Positions 6,245-31,379 are shown, numbered from the stretch's first letter. The stretch: 32,000 bases of DNA from Nostoc punctiforme PCC 73102 (GCF_000020025.1 NC_010628.1:1410001-1442000), one strand, 5' to 3'. Numbers and translations are program-made. The notes: generated by a model from the sequence alone, not told the origin.

Positions 6245-7336
6245 TTATTTTTTCAAAGAAATTTTTTGTACCTTATCTAAGTACAGCGTATTTAGCGATC
6301 GCTGACGATAAATTTCATAAAGCGCCATCCCTGCTGCTACAGAAGCATTTAGGCTGGGAGTCTTACCTTGCAGAGGAATCGATACCAAGAAATCACAGGA
6401 ACGTTGAGTCAACATACCCAGACCTTCGCCTTCTGAACCAATTACCAAAACGATTGGGCCTTTGAAATTGACAGTATGCACGGGTTCACTTCCACTTGCA
6501 GCAGTGCCATAAATCCAAAAGCCAGCTTCTTTTAATTCTTCTAAGGCGCGGCTGAGGTTAACAACTCTAGATACAGTAAAGTTTTCTAAAGCGCCTGCTG
6601 CTACTTTCATAACAGTGGAAGTGATCCCAGATGCCCGTCTTTGGGGAATTACCAATCCTTGAGCGCCTATTGCTTCGGCGGTGCGAATAATTGCTCCTAA
6701 GTTGTGGGGATCAGTAATTCCGTCAGCCACGACAATAACGGGATCGGTTACAGATTTAGACTGTTCAATGAGATCGGCTAATTCGATATAGCCGTAAGGA
6801 GCAGTTTGTGCTGCCACACCTTGATGATTAGCGCCATTGGTAAGATAGTCTAAGCGCTTGGGTTCAACCTCATCAATAACGGTGCCATTTTCCTTAGCTT
6901 GGAGCAGAAAATGGTGAAAGCTGGGATCGTAGCGCAGACGGGTCGTAATCCAGATGCGGTTAAGATTGCGCTGTTTTTGCAATGCACTCAATACTGGATG
7001 ACGACCGTAGATGATATCGTTATCTTCTTCTATTGGTTGTGTAGATACAGGCGACTGAGAGAAGTTGCTATTTCGTTGTCGAGAATTGCCAGAAATGGTG
7101 TTGCTATCTATTTTCCGGGGATTGCGAGTGGGATTAGCAACAGAAATAGGGTTGCTATCTATTTTCCGGGGATTACGAGTGGGATTAGCAACAGAAATAG
7201 GGTTGCTATCTATTTTCCGAGGATTACGAGTGGGATTACTAACAACACGCTTACCCTTAATTTTTATAGGTTTACCACGATTGGGTTCGCCAGTAGAAGT
7301 GTTAGTGCTGATGATTTTTCTCGGTTTATTCTGCAT
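6245..7336 (-). CDS. rlmB: 23S rRNA (guanosine-2'-O)-methyltransferase RlmB (SpoU/TrmH family) with a repetitive N-terminal extension
   Basis: SpoU substrate-binding region [16 protein letters not shown] motifs [28 protein letters not shown] and [22 protein letters not shown]. It is adjacent to mrnC, as in other bacteria. Confidence 0.88.
7090..7242. repeat. 3 x 51-bp tandem repeat inside the rlmB 5' region (17-aa unit [17 protein letters not shown])
   Basis: Units start at 7090, 7141 and 7192 and are near-identical. Read directly. Confidence 0.9.
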
Positions 7337-7431
7337 TTGAGTTATGAATATAGCTTATGGTTGAACATCCCGATTACCTTAATTTCTGGAACCTAATCTA
7401 CTGCTGTACCTATTGTTGTGAAATTGAGCTT

Positions 7432-7911
7432 TCACTCTTTTTCTACATGAAGCATTTGCAACAGTTCGGTTAGACGCTGGTAATCGGTGAGATATAAATA
7501 GCCTATTAGGGTTTCTAGACTAGTTGCCTGTTGATAAATTTCGGGATTAAGTCGCTTAGGGCGGCCTGTCGCGGCGTTTCTACCCCGTCGGACAATTTCT
7601 AATTCGGTGTCCCTCAGATGAGGAGTTAGCGATCGCAAATGTAGCGCTTGTGTTTCTGCTCTTACCTGCTCCACTACCAGACTATGGTAAATTCCCGACC
7701 GCTGCAATGGCAGCAGATAGAACATTCTAACATACAACTCATAAATTGCATCCCCCAAATATGCTAAAGCAGTAGGAGAAATTTGTTGCACTTGTGAGAG
7801 GGAAATCTGTTGGAATGGCCCTGTGGTTGCCAAGAGTGCTTCAGTCCAAGATAAACTCTGCTTGGGAGTTTTATCTTGTCCATCTAATAGCTCTTCCTCC
7901 TGTGACTTCAC
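7432..7911 (-). CDS. mrnC: Mini-ribonuclease 3 (Mini-III)
   Basis: 159 aa. RNase III signature LAYLGDAIYELYVR plus RRGRN. No dsRBD. Upstream of rlmB on the same strand. Confidence 0.85.
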   Translation of the reverse strand: MKSQEEELLDGQDKTPKQSLSWTEALLATTGPFQQISLSQVQQISPTALAYLGDAIYELYVRMFYLLPLQRSGIYHSLVVEQVRAETQALHLRSLTPHLRDTELEIVRRGRNAATGRPKRLNPEIYQQATSLETLIGYLYLTDYQRLTELLQMLHVEKE

Positions 7912-10381: not shown

Positions 10382-11458
10382 GTGGATTTGGCAAAGCTTG
10401 GGCAGTTAAAATTAATTATGCTTCAGTCTTTTTTATCCCGTGCAACCCTAATTTTTTTATCAAGCGCTCTAGCGGTTTTGTGTGTTGCCTGTAGTGAAGA
10501 CAAACAAAACACTGCGACTGGTGGCAATGAGCAACCCGCGCCAATTGGGGATCTGGCATCAGCACAGCCTGCCGTCAAACCACGAACACCAGCTGTTACG
10601 CCAGAAGTACAGCCGCTAGAGCCGTCTGAAAGTGAACCCAGTATTTTTGAACAGGGGCTAGACAAAGCGGTTGGCGCTTGGAGTATCAGCCGTTCTGCTC
10701 AATCTCCAGGTGATTGGATTTTGGTGGCGAATCAGTACCAGGATGCGATCGCGCTGATGCAAAGAGTCCGGCGAAAAAGCCCAGAATTTGCGATCGCTCA
10801 AACCAAAATTACTGAATATCGCCGCCAAATTAAATATGCCCAACAACAAGCTACTCCTCGCCCTGTGCGTCTTGCCGAACCAAAGAGAATAGTGGTTGTG
10901 GTGCCCCAAACAACAATTACACCAAAGTATACCTCGCCTCCACAAGAAACAAAACCGTTACCAATAGAGCCAGGTTTGCCCTCATCAGCAGTGGTGATTC
11001 CAGATCAGGAAGTATTTACAGCGCCGATTAAAAGGCGAATTGGTGGAACGCCAATTGTGGAAGTCACTTTCAATGGCCAACGAGAATTTGAGATGATTGT
11101 GGATACGGGAGCCAGTGGCACTGTCATCACCCAACAGATGGCCAATGCTTTGGGAATCGTGACAGTAGGGAGAGCTAAAGCAAATACCGCTAGTTCTAGA
11201 GCTGTAGAATTTCCTGTGGGCTATGTTAATTCGATGGCCGTTGGTGGGGTAATAGTGAATAGAATCCCAGTAGCGATCGCAGGTGCGGAACTAGAAACTG
11301 GACTTTTAGGGCATGACTTTTTTGGCAACTACGATGTCACCATCAAACGTAATGTAATAGAATTTCGCCCGCAATCGCGATCGCAAATTAATTCCCCAGA
11401 AACTCAACTAACTGCTCCAACTTCGTCCAAGCTGCCCCGCTTTGTAGGATATCCTTAG
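10382..11458 (+). CDS. retropepsin-like (clan AA) aspartic protease with N-terminal signal/lipoprotein-like anchor
   Basis: Active-site motif [13 protein letters not shown] and LLGHDFF near the C-terminus. Hydrophobic N-terminus [19 protein letters not shown] at 10418 is a more likely start than GTG 10382. Confidence 0.75.
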
Positions 11459-12476
11459 CGATTTTAATCCCTTGGGCGTGATCCAGCAGTGCGATCGTAC
11501 CTGCTACTTGCAACGCCAACGACGCATTCAACGCAACAGCATCTTGTTGCGCCTGAGTTCCCTTACCTTGGAGTACCGCCTTGAGAATTACTGCATTCTC
11601 TTGGACATCTCCACCCCGAAGCATACCTATGGGAGCAGGTGTTAGATCCAAATCTAGGGGATTAATGGTAGTTACCTGTACTTCTCCATCTGATAAAACC
11701 GCTAAGTCAGTTTCATCTCCTAACCCAGCCTCATCAAGTTTTTCTCGCCCATGCAAAACAATCGCCTTTTCCTTGCCCAAATTGTTTAATGCTTGGGCAA
11801 CAGTCGCCAAAAGTTTGGGAGTAAATAGCCCCACAACTTGCCCACTAGGACGCAAAGGATTTACTAACGGCCCCAGTAAATTAAACACCGTTCTTACCCT
11901 AAGAGTCCGCCGCAATTGGGCAACTGCTTTAAGTGCTGGATGCCAACCAGGTGCAAACAAAAAAGTGATCCCCACCTCTTGTAATGCGGCTTGCACCTTG
12001 TCACTGGATGCGCTTAAGTTTACACCCAAGGCTTCCAATACATCTGCGCTCCCCGTGAGACTTGAAGCTGAACGATTACCGTGTTTAGCAACTGGTACGC
12101 CAGATGCAGCCGCAACAAAAGCAACGGCTGTGGAAATATTAAAGGTTGATGAACCATCTCCACCCGTGCCACAGGTATCTATTACAGTGCTGAGTGCTGT
12201 TGATAGCGGGGCGTTTAGCCCGTGCTGAGTGCTAAGTGGGGAAGATTGGGATTGTAATACTTCAGCCATACCAGTCAACTCATCGGCAGAAATGCCTCTA
12301 AAGTTCAGCGCTGTTAAAATAGCCCCTGATAACTCTGGGGGAACCGCTTCACTAAGCCAACCTTGCATCAATTCAGCAGCTTGAGTACGGGATAAGGATT
12401 GGCCATCTATTAATTGTTGCAGCAGCATATACCAGCTAGCAGAGGCTTCTTGAGCAGAGATTGGAAAAGTTGTCAT
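11388..12476 (-). CDS. trpD: anthranilate phosphoribosyltransferase
   Basis: 362 aa. Motifs: [29 protein letters not shown], and NLLGPLVNP in [13 protein letters not shown]. Confidence 0.93.
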
Positions 12477-12583
12477 AGCTAAGGTTTCTGGTTTGGTAGG
12501 GTGTAGCTAGGTTGAAGGGTATGGGAGCTATCCTACCGGAAAATTGACCGCTATTAAAATTAGGTTGAAATATCAAGGCTCAA

Positions 12584-13450
12584 CTACAAAGCTGGATTAA
12601 CAAGCTTCTGATTTTTTGCTTTTTTATCCAAATAAAGTTTAATTTCGTAGTTAGTAATGAATAGCTCTTTTCCTTTCGCTGCAACACTCTGCTTATAGTT
12701 ATTCATGCCATACTGCAATTCCCATGCTGAGATATTAGCCCATTGAAAATTTTCTCGAATTTGCGATGAGTCGTCGTAGGTAATTAACCAGCGATGATGA
12801 CATTGTTGCAAAAGTTCAGCAAATCTCTTATGTTCAAAAAACGTGTGTAAGTCACCATCTTTACCATATAACTTTGATTTTGTTGCACTAAAATATGGTG
12901 GATCTAAAAATAAAAATATATTTTCTCCTGGTGATTTTAATAGGTGACTGTAATCGAGATTAGTAATTTGGACATTTTCTGATAAGATACCTTCTAATTT
13001 TTCTAATCGGTCTATCGAAGAATTAGTAAATCTTTTATGAAAAGCTTCTTGAGAAAAGCCACCTGATTCTACAGTTCCTGAAAAAGTAATTCTATTAAGG
13101 ACGAAAAAACGAACTGCTCTTTCTAAATCAGATAAACTATTGACATCTACACTAGCTAATTCTGTAAAGAGTAATTTACCATCTCTATATTTAACTTTAA
13201 TATGCCGAATTTCTTGAACTAAGTGAGCCAGATCGCATTGGGCAAACTTCCAAAATAAAAATAGTTCGCGGTTTAAATCGTTAATCCAAATCTTGATATG
13301 CGGAAATTTTTGTCTTAAATAAATAAATACAGAACCACCACCTACAAAAGGCTCTCGAAATTCTGAAAAATTATCTGGCAAGTATTCAGCTATTTGATTT
13401 ATTGCTTTTGATTTACCACCAGGATACCGCAGAGGACTTTTGATAATCAT
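12584..13450 (-). CDS. Dam-family (D12 class) N6-adenine DNA methyltransferase
   Basis: 288 aa. N-terminal LRYPGGKSK, SAM motif EPFVGGGSVF and catalytic DPPY in FLFLDPPYF. Confidence 0.88.
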   Translation of the reverse strand: MIIKSPLRYPGGKSKAINQIAEYLPDNFSEFREPFVGGGSVFIYLRQKFPHIKIWINDLNRELFLFWKFAQCDLAHLVQEIRHIKVKYRDGKLLFTELASVDVNSLSDLERAVRFFVLNRITFSGTVESGGFSQEAFHKRFTNSSIDRLEKLEGILSENVQITNLDYSHLLKSPGENIFLFLDPPYFSATKSKLYGKDGDLHTFFEHKRFAELLQQCHHRWLITYDDSSQIRENFQWANISAWELQYGMNNYKQSVAAKGKELFITNYEIKLYLDKKAKNQKLVNPAL

Positions 13451-13472
13451 TCATTATAAGGACATATTCAAA

Positions 13473-14222
13473 CTATTTCACAGGTGATACTTGTTTAGTG
13501 TTTTTATCAACTATAGTTTCTGGAAAACCATCCCAAGTTCTTCCATCAATTTCTCTACCATATTTTTTCTTTTGAATGCCTCCCCATTGTTTAAAGAAAA
13601 ATGGCACATTAGCTTGTATACACTGCTCTCTAATATCTCTTACCCATTCAATGTTCATAGGACGAGCACCTACACCAGATTCTCCACCAACAATAATCCA
13701 ATGTAGCTCATCTAAAGAAAGTGTTAAAGAACCTAAAAGAGGCTCACAAGATAAAAACCTAATTTTTGCAGGAATCTCTTTTAAAATTTCACTTCTCCAC
13801 ACCCAAGCCTGAGATTCGATACTTACTCCAGCCCAAATATTACTAGGCCATTTCTTTATGGAATTAGCTATTTTAAGCATTCTTTGTGGACGCTTAGTTA
13901 ATACCTGAAACTGATGCCAACTAGCTTCTTCCATTACATTAAATACATCTTTGATAAATTCTTCTGAAATATCATCAAGGAATAAATCACTCATGGAATT
14001 AACAAAAATTAGGCGAGGTTTCTTCCATGAAAGAGGCATTTTAAGTCTTTCATGCCAAGTTTTTACATCAAAACCTTGTTCGTAGGGATGACCAGCAACA
14101 CCTCGCCACCGCTCTGCAAAACGTTCTGCATAACAATTTTTACAACCAGGACTAATTTTATGGCAGCCAGTGGTAGGATTCCATGTAGCTTCTGTCCATT
14201 CTATTGTTGAAGATACTGACAT
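13473..14222 (-). CDS. DUF5131 / phage Gp37-Gp68 family three-Cys-motif protein
   Basis: 249 aa. N-terminal IEWTEATWNPTTGCHKISPGCKNCYAE contains C-x6-C-x2-C and matches my recollection of PF07505. Confidence 0.75.
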   Translation of the reverse strand: MSVSSTIEWTEATWNPTTGCHKISPGCKNCYAERFAERWRGVAGHPYEQGFDVKTWHERLKMPLSWKKPRLIFVNSMSDLFLDDISEEFIKDVFNVMEEASWHQFQVLTKRPQRMLKIANSIKKWPSNIWAGVSIESQAWVWRSEILKEIPAKIRFLSCEPLLGSLTLSLDELHWIIVGGESGVGARPMNIEWVRDIREQCIQANVPFFFKQWGGIQKKKYGREIDGRTWDGFPETIVDKNTKQVSPVK

Positions 14223-14265
14223 AGAATTTTACTCCCCAACTGAAACTAGGTTCACTATATTAGTA

Positions 14266-15561
14266 TTATTGTACTGCTCTAACGTAATTATCCAAAGTTA
14301 AATTGCCTCTTGCGCCCAATTCTTTAGCTTCTATAATATTTTTTTTGTGAAAATCCAGTAAAATCTCTCTATACTTAGGTCTACTTAAATAACCTAGTTT
14401 GCCAATTTCAAGAATAATAAGACTTATTACGTCTTTCAAAGTTATCCAATCTTGATTATTTCTTCGTAAAATCTCAATAATTTCAGGTCTAATTGTTTCA
14501 ATTCGCTCATCATTTTGACGCTCCCATGATTGAGTCAGAAATTTATGATTTTTTCCAGTTTTATCATCTTCAAAGAAAAGCAACTTATTTTCTTCACAAA
14601 AAAATTCGTTTAAAAACTCACCAAAAGCTTTCTGCGGATGGTTACTACCAACTACAATATTGTACTGAGGTCTAGAATCATTGTATGTTTCCTTAATTTC
14701 AAAAATAGCCACTCCTTTAAAGGTACTTTCTTTTTGAAGCCTAGACTTAAAATATTCAAGCGCCCACCTTTCAAATTTTTGTTTTTGTTCTTGATCTTGG
14801 CATTCTAGCCACTTGGGTTTCCAGTCTAAATCAGAGCTATGTCCTAATAAGTTAGTTAAATTTTGTGTGTATGTTTCGGCAGTTTTCTGGTCTTTAGAAT
14901 TTTTATAGCTTGTTTTATATAAACCTGCATGGCGAGCTACTGCGCGGTTATGAAATAGTAAAAATAATTCTCCTTTATATTTACTAACGTAATTGGCAAT
15001 AGAACATATTTGCTCAAAAGTTACTCCCTTAACTCCAAACGCATCCAGAAAAAATAACGTTGGGTATTTGTCCAATTCATTCATTATTTGAGTGAATGCT
15101 TTATCAAATCTTTGAGGTTCATAAACTTTATAGGACAATCCTTCACTTATTAAATTACAGTTACTTTTGAGTTCTTGGTTAAGGTCTTTCTTTTCCTCGG
15201 TAAAAAAACATCTTAAGGTAACACGTTCTTCAAAACTAAATATCTTAGCACATTTAAGAGCTATCAAAGGCGAACCGTCTGTATCCAAAAATTCGGTTTT
15301 GTATCTCTGCCAAAACTTCGATTGATCTACAAAATTTTCAATACCAATCCCTTCATCGTATTTGCCTGCTCCTGCAAAACCATCAACATAGTTAATATAC
15401 ATAGATTGATAGGATTTGCTACCGCCCAAATTATAGCAATAAGCCTGTATATATTTCAGCATTATCCGATGTTTGGCTGCTGACCAAGGTCTTTTACGAG
15501 CAAAAAATTTATTTGAATCTTCTGGTTGTTGATCAAATAGAGATAATTGTTTTACTGACAT
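14266..15561 (-). CDS. tcmP: TcmP-like (three-Cys-motif partner) protein with methyltransferase-like Rossmann motifs
   Basis: 431 aa. Motifs: WSAAKHRIMLKYIQAY, VDGFAGAGKY (motif-I-like FxGxG) and FFLDAFGVKG (Trm1-like LDPFG). It lies immediately upstream of the DUF5131 gene. The family assignment is from memory of TIGR04474. Confidence 0.55.
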   Translation of the reverse strand: MSVKQLSLFDQQPEDSNKFFARKRPWSAAKHRIMLKYIQAYCYNLGGSKSYQSMYINYVDGFAGAGKYDEGIGIENFVDQSKFWQRYKTEFLDTDGSPLIALKCAKIFSFEERVTLRCFFTEEKKDLNQELKSNCNLISEGLSYKVYEPQRFDKAFTQIMNELDKYPTLFFLDAFGVKGVTFEQICSIANYVSKYKGELFLLFHNRAVARHAGLYKTSYKNSKDQKTAETYTQNLTNLLGHSSDLDWKPKWLECQDQEQKQKFERWALEYFKSRLQKESTFKGVAIFEIKETYNDSRPQYNIVVGSNHPQKAFGEFLNEFFCEENKLLFFEDDKTGKNHKFLTQSWERQNDERIETIRPEIIEILRRNNQDWITLKDVISLIILEIGKLGYLSRPKYREILLDFHKKNIIEAKELGARGNLTLDNYVRAVQ

Positions 15562-15854
15562 TGCTGAACCTTCGGAAATAACAAAATATCTGATAGCTTT
15601 GCACTAGGTTAGCAAATACAGGCAAAGCTCGTAAAAATTGCAACAACTCTCCAAAATTTATCGTACCTAGCTGTTTGGCGCGTAGGTTTCTGCTGTAAGC
15701 GATCGCAAACCTATTACCATAAAACTACGCTTCCGTAATATATACTCACTAACTAATTTTTACCTTGATTTTATGTTGCAATCTCGTAAAAATCTGTTAC
15801 ATTACTTTACAGGTAGTTATAACTGTTACAACATAAAAGCTCGGAGTATTATTT

Positions 15855-16034
15855 ATGGCAGACGTTAAGAAGACTACGGGTTCAGTTCCAGAAGATCCTA
15901 ATGCTTTGCGCTGGGGCTTCACTCCTCAGAGCGAAAACTGGAACGGTCGTTTTGCAATGATTGGTTTTTTATCTGCTGTTGCGCTTGAAGTGTTTTCTGG
16001 TCAAGGGATTTTACACTTCTGGGGCATTCTATAG
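15855..16034 (+). CDS. hli: high-light-inducible protein (HLIP/Scp, one-helix CAB family); 59 aa, absent from the ORF track
   Basis: Hand translation: [59 protein letters not shown]. It contains the chlorophyll-binding motif [12 protein letters not shown]. Confidence 0.85.
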
Positions 16035-16121: not shown

Positions 16122-17213
16122 TTATCGTGATGAGCGAAATATTACCCGACCTGGGGATTCTTCCTGATTAATTCGCGCATATACTCGAAGACAAGTTAAG
16201 ACTTCGCCAGGAATACCACCACAATCTAGTTGTAAGTCATCCTTGGATGAAGCACAAATATCTGCATAAAGTCCCGATAATTGGCGGATTCGCACTTCAT
16301 TACCTGCATTAATAGCTTCGTCAGCGACTTTCTTCAGGATGCGTCGTGATTCATGTTGTAGCTTTCCCCACCAAGAATAACGTTCAGCCGGTGGTACGAA
16401 TACTAAAGAATGTATGGCTTCGTCCATGTCAATCCAAGCACGGAGAATTGACAGGGGATCAGTGTTTTTTTCAGCTTTTTGGGTGCGTTGGAAGCGATCA
16501 CTTAAAGCATCAATATATTGATCGCGCTGTTCTGCTTTGGAGTGTAAAGAAATGACATCGAAGCTAAAAACGCTCTTTAAAGCATGATGTAAATCGGGGT
16601 CTATTTCAATAAAATTCATATATAAAAATAGGAATGCTGCTGGTAAATCGGATACATTACCTTGGGAAATTTTAGAAGTTGAAAGTGCCTGTTGATACAA
16701 GGTTAATCCCTGAGTTTGAACAGTACCACTAAGGCCGGGGTAGATAATTTCGTCGCGGATAAAGGGAAGTTGATAGAGGTTAGAATTATCTGCGATCGCA
16801 CCAACTTCTTCAGCTAAGTCTAAAGTGCGCGATCGCCAAGTTGCAGCCAAATCTTCTGGTAATCGCAGCAGTTTGCGTTGAATCTCATTCCACAAATCTG
16901 AGTCCGTTGTGCTTTGCAGTTGGGAATTACCCAGATAATAATTAAGTTCTGAGTCAGAATCGAAAGCTTCCCGCAGGTGAATTAGTTTTAAATCATCTGG
17001 CGCATCTTCCCAACCACTATTTTGCTGTGGGGGTGCAGGCTGCAACAGGTTATGAATTTCTTGCAGCACCTCATCGCATATTTTAGATCCTGGATCTAGT
17101 GGAAATTCTGTGCGAGCCTGATTTAAAGTAGCCTCTAGTCCATACAAACTAAACCGCAGTAGTTGTGCTAACTGTGAGTTTTCTATCTCTAATAATTGAC
17201 GCAAGTGCTGCAT
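16122..17213 (-). CDS. hypothetical protein, third gene of the dynamin/Hsp70-like cluster
   Basis: ATG at 17213 lies 5 nt after GGAGGTGA, so I prefer it to the ORF-track TTG at 17228. No motifs recognised in 363 aa. Confidence 0.7.
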   Translation of the reverse strand: MQHLRQLLEIENSQLAQLLRFSLYGLEATLNQARTEFPLDPGSKICDEVLQEIHNLLQPAPPQQNSGWEDAPDDLKLIHLREAFDSDSELNYYLGNSQLQSTTDSDLWNEIQRKLLRLPEDLAATWRSRTLDLAEEVGAIADNSNLYQLPFIRDEIIYPGLSGTVQTQGLTLYQQALSTSKISQGNVSDLPAAFLFLYMNFIEIDPDLHHALKSVFSFDVISLHSKAEQRDQYIDALSDRFQRTQKAEKNTDPLSILRAWIDMDEAIHSLVFVPPAERYSWWGKLQHESRRILKKVADEAINAGNEVRIRQLSGLYADICASSKDDLQLDCGGIPGEVLTCLRVYARINQEESPGRVIFRSSR

Positions 17214-17264
17214 AAATCTCACCTCCAAATATTACTTGTATGTGATTCGTAGTGAATTAAACTT

Positions 17265-17383: not shown

Positions 17384-20356
17384 TTAATGTATGCCGCAAA
17401 ATGGATCGCGTTCTTTATCAACTTCATTGGGTTGCAATTCTAATTCAGCAATATAAATACATCCCTCTTCTTTTAGGCATTCCTGACTGTTTGATGTCCA
17501 GTAAGGTACTTCACCAGCGTGCATCCGCAGAATGCCTTGATCGTCAAGAGTTACACGATATTGGCAAGGGTAATCTGTTGTCACATCTGGTTTGCTGAGT
17601 GCGCCAATTCGTATCCATTTTTTGCTGTTGGTTTCCGTGTCTGTATGATAAATATAAAAAGTGTGCTGGCCAGTTTGTGGAAATGGAGGCAAGGGATTAC
17701 TAATTAACCCAATTCCTGGCTCCGTCACACCATCGCGCAGATAGTGAAATTTTTTGAACAATTTACTCCCATCATTTCCTACTTCGAATACAAGATGATA
17801 GGCATCTGGTTGATCGACAGTTGCGGACTCAATAACATTGACGGCAATATCACCATCATTTAAATCTTTATTGAAACCTTCAACAGCAATATTCCAATTC
17901 AATTTACCATCAGCAAATAGGGGTGATGTTTCAGAAACAACCGATTCCAAATCAATGCCAGGAATATCAATTAAATAATGGGGATTTCCCTGACAAAGCA
18001 ACACATTAAATTCAAGGGTTTGGTCAATCTCAAACTGAACTTTAATTTTTTTCAGGAACTCTGCCTCTTGCATTCCCAGTTTATTCATGAGGTTTTTACC
18101 GTCGAAGCTACCCCATAGTCGTAAATCTCCATCTTCGTAGTCTTGACGGTAAATAATATTAGTTAATTGGATTCCTTGCCATGCAGTACGAACCTTGGCG
18201 ACAGTTTCCCAAGGTGCAAGTTGATAGAGTTCTTGTCCAGCCTTAAATATGGTTAGTAAATCGTTACTCTGGGTTTTGCGTTTGAAGTTACAAGGCAAAT
18301 AATAAAATAGATTTTTGACATCAATTTCTAGCTGGTTGGCTCCCTTACGCAGCAAGCTTTTTGACTCTTCTGGATCGAATCTTAATCTTCGTAGTTTTTC
18401 GGCATAGCAAGCACCGGCAGAGGTGGCTAATTTGGTAAATTCCAGCACAAAAGTAATTCGTTCTGGATTCCACACAAAATATGGAGACTTACTAAATTCT
18501 TGGTAAATTTGGCGCTGTACTATGTCTAAATTACAAGTTTTTCCAGACAGAATTAACCAATCTACTTTTTGGGAATTCCAAGAATCTTTGGCGATCTCAT
18601 CGGGACGTAAGCGACTTTCCATCAATCCTTTAGCAATACCGATCGCTTCCTTAATTCCTGAAACGGTGGCTCGTTCAAACTGGTAGTTATCTAGAGTAAC
18701 GCAGATGCTATTTGGATCTTTGACTTGCAATTTAATGGCACTTTGAGTGAGCAGTTCAGAAATTTGTTGTTCAGAAAGTGTGAAGGTTAAAAGAGAATTA
18801 TCTGCTGGTGCCTTTTGCCCAAGTTTAAGTTTAGCTGCTTCTGCATGATCCCAGAGAATATAAAAGGATTGCAAGCGTTGGGGTGCTTGTTGCCAACGAG
18901 TGGGTAATACTTTCTCGGCAGTATCTAGGGCATCTTTATAAGCAATATCGCCTTCTGGATTATCTTTATCTAGACATTTTAAAAGACTGCCATTTTTGAA
19001 TTTGCCTTGTTCTAAAAAGCGTTCGTTTAACTCAGAACTAATTAAATCTTCTAGTTTTTCGCTTTCAATATCACCTGTTGTTACTGCTGCCAATAAAAAA
19101 TCTGCGATCACAACTTTTAATAATCTAAAAATTCGCAGTGTAATTAACTCACCACCTAACTGTAAATGACCGGATGAACCTAATAGTTTGGGGGTGAGTT
19201 TATAGTAACGTCCTCCTAAACCCCGGTCTTCATAATCAGCAAAAGTTGGGGTTTTGTCTTCTAAAGTCAGTTCAATTAAAGCTAAGTCTGTGGTTCCGCC
19301 GCCGATATCCAAAACGAGGACATTTTGTGACCATTTATTTCCTACTTGACGGCAACGAGTTTTGAATGACTCGATGCCAATATTCAGATTACCGCCAAAT
19401 TCTCGCCATAAAAAGAATATTGCCACAGAAACGGCTTCATCATAAGCAGTTTGGACATCATCTATCCCCAATTGCTCAACAAATTCCTTAACTTCTTTGC
19501 GAACAACTGGTGGGGCGACGGTGGGGTAGGTGACAACTGCTGTCAAAAAAGTTCCTTCTGAAAATCTACGTTGGGCGCGTTGGCGATAATCTTCAGTTAA
19601 CTCGATTAAATGCGCCCAAGCAGATTGAATCAGTTGATTTGCGGTAATTATTTTTTCTTCACCATCCAAAATAACTGAAAACGATCGCTCCTGACCAAAA
19701 TAGCGTTTGGGTGAATGGTGAAACCTGCTGATAATTTCCTTTAAAGAACTGCTGGTACCTTGAGCGATCGCTTTTTTGCGGTTATCTCTAGCTTCTCTAC
19801 CCATCCGCAGTTTTAAGTCCCCTAACTGCGAAATTTCCAACTCGCTGGGAATTTCCGTATCGCGGCGATCGATATCCAGCACAACTGGGATCAGATTTTG
19901 CGACTCTAGGGTAGGGACGCGGAACACCTCATGATAGATTTGGTAAAGTTTTTTGCTGACAGCACGGCGAAACCTCTCGCTGTTTCCTAAAGAAAGTTCA
20001 ATTTGGCGAATTGCTTCTAAAAAACGCTCTTTATTGTCACTTTCAAAAACTTCACTCAATTTGCTTGGATCTATATCCAGGTTTTTGCTAATTTCTGTGA
20101 TGAATTTTGCCCAATCATCATCGCTAACATCTGGTAAAGCAACTGAAGCGGGAGAACTCAGCCATTGTGATAAGCGATCGCGCAACCGCATTTCTTGTTC
20201 TTTTGGGAGAATTTCTGCGATCGGCACTTCAATCGGATCGAAAAGTGTAACTGTAGAGTTCGATGTACCAAAATCTAAAGCAAACCATCCCGGAAATCTT
20301 TTTTGTTGTTTCTCTGGTTCTTGATCGCTATATTTGTTGAGTTGAAAAGGGTTCAT
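17384..20356 (-). CDS. large Hsp70/actin-fold ATPase-like protein with an unknown ~350-aa C-terminal domain
   Basis: Phosphate-1 motif WFALDFGTSNS (about 20251-20290), phosphate-2 motif VLVLDIGGGTTDLAL (about 19291-19320), and the adenosine-motif-like ILSGKTCNLDIVQRQI. ATG at 20356 is preferred. The GTG at 20446 used by the ORF track lies within intergenic repeat sequence. Confidence 0.8.
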   Translation of the reverse strand: MNPFQLNKYSDQEPEKQQKRFPGWFALDFGTSNSTVTLFDPIEVPIAEILPKEQEMRLRDRLSQWLSSPASVALPDVSDDDWAKFITEISKNLDIDPSKLSEVFESDNKERFLEAIRQIELSLGNSERFRRAVSKKLYQIYHEVFRVPTLESQNLIPVVLDIDRRDTEIPSELEISQLGDLKLRMGREARDNRKKAIAQGTSSSLKEIISRFHHSPKRYFGQERSFSVILDGEEKIITANQLIQSAWAHLIELTEDYRQRAQRRFSEGTFLTAVVTYPTVAPPVVRKEVKEFVEQLGIDDVQTAYDEAVSVAIFFLWREFGGNLNIGIESFKTRCRQVGNKWSQNVLVLDIGGGTTDLALIELTLEDKTPTFADYEDRGLGGRYYKLTPKLLGSSGHLQLGGELITLRIFRLLKVVIADFLLAAVTTGDIESEKLEDLISSELNERFLEQGKFKNGSLLKCLDKDNPEGDIAYKDALDTAEKVLPTRWQQAPQRLQSFYILWDHAEAAKLKLGQKAPADNSLLTFTLSEQQISELLTQSAIKLQVKDPNSICVTLDNYQFERATVSGIKEAIGIAKGLMESRLRPDEIAKDSWNSQKVDWLILSGKTCNLDIVQRQIYQEFSKSPYFVWNPERITFVLEFTKLATSAGACYAEKLRRLRFDPEESKSLLRKGANQLEIDVKNLFYYLPCNFKRKTQSNDLLTIFKAGQELYQLAPWETVAKVRTAWQGIQLTNIIYRQDYEDGDLRLWGSFDGKNLMNKLGMQEAEFLKKIKVQFEIDQTLEFNVLLCQGNPHYLIDIPGIDLESVVSETSPLFADGKLNWNIAVEGFNKDLNDGDIAVNVIESATVDQPDAYHLVFEVGNDGSKLFKKFHYLRDGVTEPGIGLISNPLPPFPQTGQHTFYIYHTDTETNSKKWIRIGALSKPDVTTDYPCQYRVTLDDQGILRMHAGEVPYWTSNSQECLKEEGCIYIAELELQPNEVDKERDPFCGIH

Positions 20357-20767
20357 TACAGTATCCGTTTCTGTTGTTTGGTTAGTAGAGCTTTGCGTCG
20401 TAATGTGAGGAATTGAGGGATGAAATTTAAACGCAAAGATTAGCACAGAGGAACGCAGATTTTTTAGTTTTGATTTTCTATGAATTGAGGAAATCTTATA
20501 CTTAATTTGTGGCTCCTTGAAAATCTGCTGAGGAGCATCCCAATTAGAAAAAATATACAGTACTGATGCAAAAACCCTTTTAAATCTTCTTACCTTTGCG
20601 TCCTACCCTGCGGGAAGCCACTTCGTGTCTATGCGTCCTTTGCGGTTCGTTTTCTCATCCTCCTGGGTAAGTTGCAATCCCCTATGTAAATTAAATTTGA
20701 GTATTTGGCTTAGGGGAAAGATTACAAGTATTATTGAATAATTTATCCCCTATAACCTATTTTCAAA

Positions 20768-31172: not shown

Positions 31173-31379
<207 letters not shown>

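Follow-up and report, generated by a model that had tools for sequence, protein, structure and literature searches.

A Nostoc punctiforme locus between trpD and hli, very probably composed of a resident DNA methylase gene and an autonomous TcmP-DUF5131 gene pair

The window analysed here is a stretch of 32,000 nucleotides (nt) from Nostoc punctiforme PCC 73102 (NC_010628.1:1410001-1442000), and the region under study (12584-15561) holds three minus-strand genes between trpD and a small gene of the high-light-inducible (hli) type. They encode a D12-family DNA methyltransferase (hereafter the methylase), a DUF5131 protein and a TcmP protein. The original prediction, made from the sequence of the window, read the three as a single, recently acquired DNA-modification or defence cassette. 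Our comparison with other genomes leads us to conclude, with high confidence, that the locus is composite and consists of a resident methylase gene and an autonomous two-gene module, the TcmP-DUF5131 pair. The arrangement that had been described is correct, as the open reading frames (ORFs) are tightly spaced, with gaps of 22 nt between methylase and DUF5131 and of 43 nt between DUF5131 and TcmP. Their low GC content (0.324 for the methylase, 0.363 for DUF5131 and 0.323 for TcmP) against that of trpD (0.478) was likewise reproduced, the whole window being at 0.412. The features of the locus are the following.

12584-13450, minus strand: D12-family DNA methyltransferase gene, ORF of 288 amino acids (aa), PF02086
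13473-14222, minus strand: DUF5131 gene, ORF of 249 aa, PF07505
14266-15561, minus strand: TcmP gene, ORF of 431 aa, TIGR04474
about 13451-15697: variable slot with the accessory segment (DUF5131, TcmP and a 136-nt region upstream of them), delimited by blastn breakpoints
11388-12476, minus strand: trpD (anthranilate phosphoribosyltransferase), a conserved gene that anchors the locus downstream of the methylase; its orthologue in locus L001 carries the Glycos_trans_3N and Glycos_transf_3 domains
15699-15706: HIP1 octamer GCGATCGC at the hli-proximal border of the slot, from a sequence scan and the breakpoints
15855-16034, plus strand: hli-type small protein of 59 aa, an ORF divergent to TcmP and the conserved anchor at the opposite end of the slot

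In a survey anchored on trpD, 80 Nostocales orthologue loci were fetched (loci are cited below by number), and the methylase was found directly upstream of trpD in 63 of the 80 genomes, whether the pair was present or not. It is kept there even when the slot is nearly empty, as in L028, L040, L043 and L048, where only 212-400 nt remain. The identity of the methylase protein to the window copy ranges from 68 to 90% and correlates with the identity of trpD (r=0.90). We conclude that the methylase is an old, vertically kept resident of the Nostocales trpD locus. Moreover, since its GC content is 0.30-0.34 in all 63 loci, the low GC is a stable trait of an old resident gene and no mark of recent transfer. 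The gene stands at about 0.32 in genomes of about 0.41-0.42, with trpD at 0.47, and throughout the order its composition has come no closer to the genome mean. Among the 84 loci compared, 35 have the hli protein, the other anchor, at 76-100% identity.

The borders of the variable part are not those that had been drawn around all three genes. In blastn comparisons with L028, L006, L031, L026, L043 and L040, homology with Nostoc genomes that lack the pair extends from trpD through the whole methylase to approximately 13443-13458 and resumes at approximately 15696-15698, that is, the breakpoints are the start codon of the methylase and position 15698. Because homology runs through the entire methylase, the accessory segment comprises only about 13451-15697 and the methylase lies outside it.

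At the trpD locus the pair was found only in the window, L001 (Nostoc), L045 (Nostoc ChiSLP01), L002 (Tolypothrix tenuis) and L081 (Sphaerospermopsis), and in this last locus a cytochrome b561 gene and a transposase gene lie between the pair and the methylase. The last 90 residues of DUF5131 are found beside the methylase in L031, and this remnant is a deletion scar. Close orthologues of the pair (TcmP identity of 50-72%) also occur at six loci with no adjacent methylase, namely L004 of Leptolyngbya, L196, L197 and L199 on cyanobacterial contigs including Microcoleus, L169 on an IMG/VR contig and L200 of Anabaena lutea. These six loci make the pair independent of the methylase, and the case of Anabaena lutea is decisive: this genome has an intact restriction enzyme gene, the methylase and trpD together on L201, and the pair on another contig with unrelated neighbours. 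The adjacency of pair and methylase in the window is thus best regarded as an accident of the slot occupied, the methylase being a bystander.

It is therefore highly improbable that the three genes are one recently acquired restriction-modification-like or hypermodification cassette, in which the methylase marks self and TcmP and DUF5131 provide the effector. Tight co-oriented spacing and a common low GC content agree with such a unit, as does the absence of any terminator-like site between the genes (the scan returned none), and the very place next to the methylase that other genomes give to a restriction enzyme gene is taken by the pair in the window, L001, L002 and L045. However, the methylase stays beside trpD whatever lies upstream of it, empty slots included, six loci have the pair without an adjacent methylase, two unrelated genes separate them in L081, and D12 methylases are not among the commonest neighbours of 60 diverse pairs. 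Divergence also follows the host, so the acquisition was not recent, and synteny largely refutes the single unit.

The age of the pair could be judged from its four orthologues at the locus. TcmP is 92, 88, 77 and 70% identical to them and trpD 91, 83, 82 and 74%, and synonymous divergence (dS) of the pair is 0.2-1.0. Together with a methylase that is equally AT-rich in 63 genomes, these parallel identities speak against the recent horizontal acquisition that had been proposed. Ratios of nonsynonymous to synonymous divergence (dN/dS) are 0.11-0.19 for TcmP and 0.15-0.24 for DUF5131, so the pair is under purifying selection. The original prediction had itself named, among the outcomes that would tell against it, a trio that is syntenic and native in related genomes and a failure of the family models; the first is what we see in part, as the divergence of the pair parallels that of trpD, whereas both proteins are recognised by their models.

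The lack of HIP1 (GCGATCGC) had been taken as a second sign of foreign origin. There is indeed no HIP1 site from 11385 to 15698, but trpD, which had been counted among the HIP1-bearing flanks, also has zero sites. In 2978 nt only 2.8 sites are expected, giving a Poisson probability of zero sites of 0.06, and two other gaps within the window, of 3.6 and 2.9 kb, are likewise HIP1-free. With this probability, HIP1 absence in the window alone was rejected as a sign of foreign origin. It carries meaning only when loci are pooled, the pair being without HIP1 in five of five further loci (the four Nostocales orthologues and Leptolyngbya L004). A HIP1 octamer was also seen at the equivalent slot border of L028 (5903), L031 (5706), L026 (4538) and L043 (5705), which with the window makes at least five genomes, and HIP1 may mark or mediate a recombination junction at the hli-proximal edge of the slot. 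Since a search for direct or inverted repeats flanking the segment gave short, chance-level matches only, and since a scan of the window found no tRNA or Rfam family near the segment, an integrase-type island is not supported. The promoter scan was uninformative (15 promoter-like sites against 13.4 expected).

The resident methylase had been called a Dam-type enzyme. It matches PF02086 (E=6e-36) and has the DPPY motif, as had been stated, but it scores 110.3 bits with TIGR00571 (dam), below the cut-off of 114.85, and 37 with the E. coli Dam equivalog NF008152, whose cut-off is 441. Comparison with the PDB gave a full-length match to 7M6B (M.CbeI), which scored 321 bits (E=7e-95) with 53% identity over 272 columns, whereas DpnM reached 57 bits and E. 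coli Dam about 31, and the Dam assignment is not supported. M.CbeI belongs to the alpha-class N4-cytosine methyltransferases and carries DPPY (PMC8616854); it shields GGCC from CbeI, an isoschizomer of HaeIII, and is 57% identical to DmtB of Anabaena variabilis, the enzyme that makes N4-methylcytosine (m4C) in GGCC and that also has DPPY (PMC3425538). Similarly, M.Ssp6803II (Sll0729) of Synechocystis has Dam/D12 domains and yet makes GGm4CC, and 234 cyanobacterial homologues of it have been counted (PMC6105098); its loss causes a strong growth defect (PMC6105098, PMC6560206). From this similarity the methylase is likely to be a GGCC m4C enzyme and not a GATC Dam. The simplest reading is that it is probably the N. 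punctiforme orthologue of DmtB, of the DmtB/M.Ssp6803II/M.CbeI type.

In about a dozen Nostoc genomes a restriction gene, intact or decaying, lies directly upstream of the methylase. The encoded putative Type II restriction enzyme (C2) has 377-381 aa and matches the PADLOC REase_II model PDLC03572 (4e-57). It is intact in L006 (4875-6020), L007, L019 and L201 (6001-7143) and fragmented in L009, L014, L015, L030 and L033, and tblastn found no trace of it anywhere in the window. This enzyme gave no match in Pfam, NCBIfam or the PDB. A link to CbeI was not shown by its top 120 homologues, which are all cyanobacterial (mostly Nostocales) and chiefly named 'hypothetical protein' or left unnamed; in total some 2000 homologues were found, annotated mostly as hypothetical. 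The methylase thus looks like what is left of an old Type II restriction-modification pair, presumably specific for GGCC (HaeIII-like), and the upstream restriction enzyme of the other Nostoc genomes would be its former GGCC-cutting partner.

Besides the restriction enzyme and the TcmP-DUF5131 pair, the slot may hold a PIN protein with a ribbon-helix-helix protein (VapBC-like), ZorA/B/C, a dynamin-like gene, a transposase, a cytochrome b561 gene or nothing. The Zorya genes occupy it in L049 (545-5141) and L056 (644-5272), which are from Nostoc carneum and Calothrix anomala, with E-values of 2.5e-266 for ZorA, 2.6e-72 for ZorB and 5.9e-175 for the EH-signature ZorC; a 114-aa ORF lies upstream of the Zorya genes. 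Dynamin-like genes with weak similarity to LeoA are inserted in L018, L037 and L066. Variation is also found at a second site, between methylase and trpD, where about 12 Nostoc genomes (L001, at 10915-13331, and about 11 others) have a cassette of approximately 2.4-3.5 kb encoding an NAD-dependent epimerase and ClpP-like, cupin, AHSA1/SRPBCC and ArsR-type helix-turn-helix proteins; the window is without this cassette. The trpD/hli locus of the Nostocales can be seen as a defence hotspot with sharp borders that holds, depending on the strain, a restriction enzyme, Zorya, VapBC or TcmP-DUF5131. This variation moreover offers natural, isogenic-like comparisons among strains.

One could suppose that the pair replaced the lost restriction enzyme and reads the GGm4CC status in trans, as an effector of restriction type for which the resident methylase is needed even where it is not adjacent. 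Pair and restriction enzyme do take the same position and no genome holds both in the slot, and methylases of the DmtB type are widespread in cyanobacteria (the 234 homologues of PMC6105098). Nevertheless Anabaena lutea has the intact restriction enzyme and the methylase with the pair elsewhere, and archaea and other phyla widely carry the pair, either beside unrelated Type I and Type III systems or with no methylase at all. We consider this dependence very unlikely.

As for the pair itself, the family assignments made earlier were upheld by hidden Markov models. TcmP matches TIGR04474 over residues 25-310 (111.8 bits, cut-off 53, E=5e-32), and DUF5131 matches PF07505 at profile positions 2-243 of 243 (319.4 bits, threshold 28.9, E=2e-95). 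The motifs that had been quoted, DGFAGAGKY and FLDAFG in TcmP and C-x6-C-x2-C in DUF5131, are also present. The TcmP family numbers 3918 cluster representatives at E<=1e-3, most of them of about 380 aa and aligned end to end, and TcmP diverges fast. Because most members align along their full length, the C-terminal region is a feature of the family, and the proposal that it could be a special effector is not supported. TcmP has no Pfam match.

The AlphaFold model of TcmP (pLDDT, the predicted local distance difference test, 88; pTM, the predicted template modelling score, 0.86) predicts three parts: a disordered N-terminus, an RlmJ-like class I methyltransferase fold of the kind that uses S-adenosylmethionine (SAM) at about residues 25-330, and a C-terminal helical/beta-hairpin domain at about 343-431. 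The top Foldseek matches in the PDB were to E. coli RlmJ (E=1e-6, probability 1.0, target-normalised TM-score 0.53-0.59), followed by other class I SAM methyltransferases. RlmJ (DUF519) is the 23S ribosomal RNA (rRNA) m6A2030 methyltransferase. The motifs of the two proteins are colinear, as listed here.

KH motif: ADVLKH in RlmJ, SAAKH in TcmP
Motif I: LDTHAGAGRY in RlmJ, VDGFAGAGKY in TcmP
GSP motif: YPGSPLIA in RlmJ, DGSPLIA in TcmP
Acidic motif: LTE in RlmJ, FTE in TcmP
Motif IV: IDPPY in RlmJ, LDAFG in TcmP

In 40 diverse TcmPs the residues K30, D60, G64, S97, P98 and D173 are invariant. Sequence searches of the PDB with TcmP and with DUF5131 gave nothing below E=0.7, and the relation of TcmP to RlmJ is structural only, consisting of the fold and the motif order.

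TcmP carries near its N-terminus the peptide QLSLF (residues 5-9, translated from 15535-15549, minus strand), within residues 1-22 for which pLDDT is below 50. Binding to the beta sliding clamp has QLxLF as its consensus, with QLSLF as the full version in experimental use (PMC4549789). The strict form QL[SD]LF is present in 36 of 87 TcmPs of the cyanobacterial clade against 0.25 expected from shuffled sequences, a 140-fold enrichment, and of the 52 relaxed clamp motifs in this clade 50 are within the first 30 residues. The other TcmPs (n=121) have 22 relaxed matches against 2.9 expected, 21 of which lie in the linker between the methyltransferase-like and C-terminal domains (for example GKQLSLFD and HQLSLFGEP). 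That such a short motif stays enriched while it shifts between disordered positions argues for a conserved docking function, and hence for DNA as the substrate. The substrate of TcmP is accordingly likely to be DNA rather than rRNA. Two archaeal loci hold TcmP-like partners of DUF5131, convergent with it, at 6720-7655 (minus strand, 311 aa) in L085 and 6717-7712 (minus strand, 331 aa) in L086, which end in ...GQDTLF and ...GGQTRLF. These C-terminal QDTLF and QTRLF sequences may be docking peptides for the archaeal clamp (PCNA). The shift in position between clades, taken with archaeal ends of the Q-x-x-L-F form, would make docking on the clamp a requirement that the family has conserved.

DUF5131 is the more conserved partner, being 62-65% identical to its archaeal and Gemmatimonadota homologues, with 75 invariant columns. 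Its three cysteines, C20-x6-C27-x2-C30 in the motif CHKISPGCKNC (residues 20-30, translated from 14133-14165, minus strand), are invariant in 33 diverse homologues, as are the segments SMSDL, LTKR, GGESG and FFFKQWGG. RadicalSAM.org places DUF5131 in Megacluster-5-2 with the motif CX6CX2C, in the same megacluster as spore photoproduct lyase (PMC9477430). The protein also matches TIGR04471, 'radical SAM mobile pair protein A', at 3e-19, which is below the cut-off. Its AlphaFold model (pLDDT 82) has a beta/alpha, barrel-like (TIM-like) fold. We regard DUF5131 as a putative non-canonical radical-SAM enzyme.

The association of the two genes, which had been described as a recognised one, is real. 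We sampled 111 loci with diverse TcmP relatives, 83 of which had room for a neighbour, and DUF5131 adjoins TcmP in 66 of these 83; 15 loci had no DUF5131 despite the room. The order seen in the window, TcmP followed by co-oriented DUF5131, is the commonest (36 of the 66 pairs). In PADLOC, DUF5131 matches PDC-M41B (4e-105) and PDC-M30B (8e-103) over its full length, and TcmP gives weak, partial matches (3.5e-10 and 3.7e-10) to the two A components, PDC-M30A and PDC-M41A. PDC-M30 and PDC-M41 are candidate phage-defence systems, so that the pair belongs to families already catalogued and uncharacterised. In the surroundings of 60 diverse pairs the enriched neighbour families are ResIII (7 loci), serine recombinases (5), SWI2/SNF2 (4), N6_N4 methylases (4) and TIR (3), and further HsdR, Mrr and RE_endonuc domains, AbiEii-like AAA proteins and integrases; D12 methylases were not among the commonest. 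At L085, L086 and L088, archaeal and other loci, the pairs have Type III, Type I and DUF1156/DUF499 systems as neighbours. Twenty-six IMG/VR contigs encode TcmP relatives, and DUF5131 matches the phage family phrog_2045 (3e-98), with no PHROG match for TcmP. The defence setting that had been proposed is therefore supported for the pair by its PADLOC matches, its restriction, TIR, Mrr and recombinase neighbours and the alternative contents of the slot, but not for the methylase, which is outside the module.

Taking the locus as a whole, we lean, by somewhat more than an even chance, toward a composite locus with a methylase of the GGm4CC type, a clamp-docked TcmP and a radical-SAM DUF5131. That the pair has a role in conflict or defence, our best guess being a clamp-tethered, DNA-directed module, is put forward tentatively, at a little under even chances. 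In such a module TcmP would be the targeting subunit. Its N-terminal QLSLF would dock it on the beta sliding clamp and so place it on replicating DNA, its C-terminal domain would contact the DNA, and its RlmJ-like pocket, which keeps the KH, DGFAGxGxY, GSP and E motifs and the D-x-F-G motif IV, would bind SAM and accept a flipped-out base. DUF5131 would then be the conserved catalytic engine, using a [4Fe-4S] cluster held by CX6CX2C, together with SAM, to perform radical chemistry on that nucleotide. The outcome would be a covalent change of the DNA, or damage to it, used against phages or other mobile DNA. We are tempted to go further and to see here a replication-coupled DNA-targeting system of an undescribed kind, in which a clamp-riding adaptor presents the bases of new or foreign DNA to a CX6CX2C radical-SAM enzyme with an anti-phage or anti-plasmid effect; in this full form the idea is doubtful.

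Several points weigh against this picture of the locus. The motif IV of TcmP in the window, DAFG, is without the proline of DPFG (most TcmPs) or DPPY (RlmJ), and catalysis may be altered or lost; when the TcmP profile was aligned with RlmJ by hhalign, only motif I was aligned, over 19 columns and with a probability of 28%. DUF5131 gave no significant Foldseek match in the PDB, the best having an E-value of 0.013, and radical-SAM enzymes ranked no better than generic TIM barrels. QLSLF has only five residues, and the predicted clamp binding is deduced from consensus, position and enrichment. The GGCC specificity predicted for the methylase derives from its 53% identity to M.CbeI. Outside the Nostocales, the cyanobacterial pairs sit among housekeeping genes and not in defence islands, and in the searchable literature no experimental work on a TcmP or a DUF5131 protein turned up. 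Finally, the pair has dS values (0.26-0.45 for the comparison with L045, 0.71-0.90 for that with L081) of about half those of trpD (0.87 and 1.69) and also below those of the methylase, which makes some lateral exchange among Nostocales through the conserved flanks possible, if need be alongside ancestral presence with repeated loss.

The housekeeping surroundings lead to another explanation, that the pair serves DNA repair, with DUF5131 as a lyase akin to spore photoproduct lyase that TcmP recruits to clamp-loaded DNA, where it reverses a lesion of the ultraviolet or alkylation type. Its clustering with spore photoproduct lyase and MJ0683-like proteins in Megacluster-5 would suit this function, and so would the extreme conservation of DUF5131 across domains, the clamp-binding motifs, which are typical of replication and repair enzymes, and, in the Nostocales, the position beside a high-light-inducible gene. 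A repair function is harder to reconcile with the patchy distribution (the pair is at the locus in 5 of about 80 Nostocales) and a fast-diverging TcmP, or with the PADLOC candidate matches, the restriction, TIR, Mrr, AbiE and recombinase neighbours and the occurrence on IMG/VR viral contigs. We judge it quite unlikely.

The viral contigs, for their part, fit a pair that is a modification module only, that is, an epigenetic or hypermodification writer or an RlmJ-like modifier of RNA that helps mobile elements to evade restriction and has no defensive effector. TcmP does retain SAM-methyltransferase motifs and an RlmJ-like fold, DUF5131 belongs to phrog_2045, and recombinases and integrases are frequent among the neighbours. 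But TcmP matches no PHROG, which implies that true phages seem to carry DUF5131 without TcmP, the clamp motif favours DNA over an rRNA target, and a writer alone leaves the membership in PADLOC candidate systems unexplained. A pure modification role is in our opinion unlikely, and the clamp-tethered module acting in conflict or defence continues to be our best guess.

The locus illustrates a trap in annotation, as a D12 methylase with DPPY in an AT-rich patch resembled a Dam enzyme in a fresh island, although it more likely represents the GGm4CC enzyme conserved in cyanobacteria, for which physiological roles are known in Synechocystis (PMC6105098, PMC6560206). For the pair, widespread and uncharacterised, testable handles are provided by the fold similar to that of RlmJ, by the SAM motifs that are kept and by the enrichment of the clamp motif, and Nostoc punctiforme is amenable to genetics. 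Should clamp tethering and radical chemistry both prove true, the pair would give cells or mobile elements a novel means of acting on DNA under replication.

Some further genes of the window deserve mention. A 358-aa ORF for a retropepsin-like aspartic protease (10382-11458, plus strand) convergently overlaps the 3' end of trpD (11388-12476, minus strand) by 71 nt; its orthologues carry Asp_protease_2 and gag-asp_proteas domains, and the overlap with trpD is kept in L001, L002 and L201. For two conserved proteins of 368 aa (16122-17228, minus strand) and 1020 aa (17384-20446, minus strand) no family of Pfam, NCBIfam or PADLOC gave a significant match. Both adjoin a dynamin-like gene in L001 and L002, and the 1020-aa protein has a faint match to SrfB. 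ARAGORN reported a tRNA-like gene at 31232-31303 (plus strand), with a two-base anticodon call, 'tRNA-??? (ct)', and no identity assigned.

Compared with known systems, the methylase shares with M.CbeI, DmtB and M.Ssp6803II the DPPY motif, the D12/PF02086 fold family and the cyanobacteria-wide keeping as a solitary enzyme (PMC3425538, PMC6105098, PMC6560206). It differs in that its orthologues in some Nostoc genomes adjoin a restriction enzyme gene, so that there they are no orphans. With E. coli Dam and DpnM, the GATC N6-adenine enzymes of TIGR00571, it has PF02086, DPPY and a similar length in common, whereas its scores with them (31 and 57 bits, against 321 with M.CbeI) and its place below the dam cut-off set it apart. 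TcmP, for its part, adds to what is found in RlmJ a C-terminal domain, a clamp-type motif and an obligate DUF5131 neighbour.

In relation to TIGR04474/PF07505 pairs in general, both proteins of the window pass the family models, and their genes are adjacent and co-oriented in the commonest order. The cyanobacterial TcmP clade is nevertheless longer than other TcmPs (about 430 against about 380 aa), carries QLSLF N-terminally and not in the linker between the domains, and has a motif IV of the form D-[ATSCVP]-F-G where most TcmPs have DPFG. Like spore photoproduct lyase and the prokaryotic viperins, DUF5131 has a three-cysteine motif and a beta/alpha barrel-like model; it shares the RadicalSAM.org megacluster with the former and gave weak Foldseek matches to viperin-like enzymes. 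In contrast to these enzymes its cysteines are spaced as CX6CX2C instead of CX3CX2C, and it has no significant structural match among them. Moreover, viperins act alone on nucleotides, whereas DUF5131 is accompanied by a partner with a methyltransferase fold.

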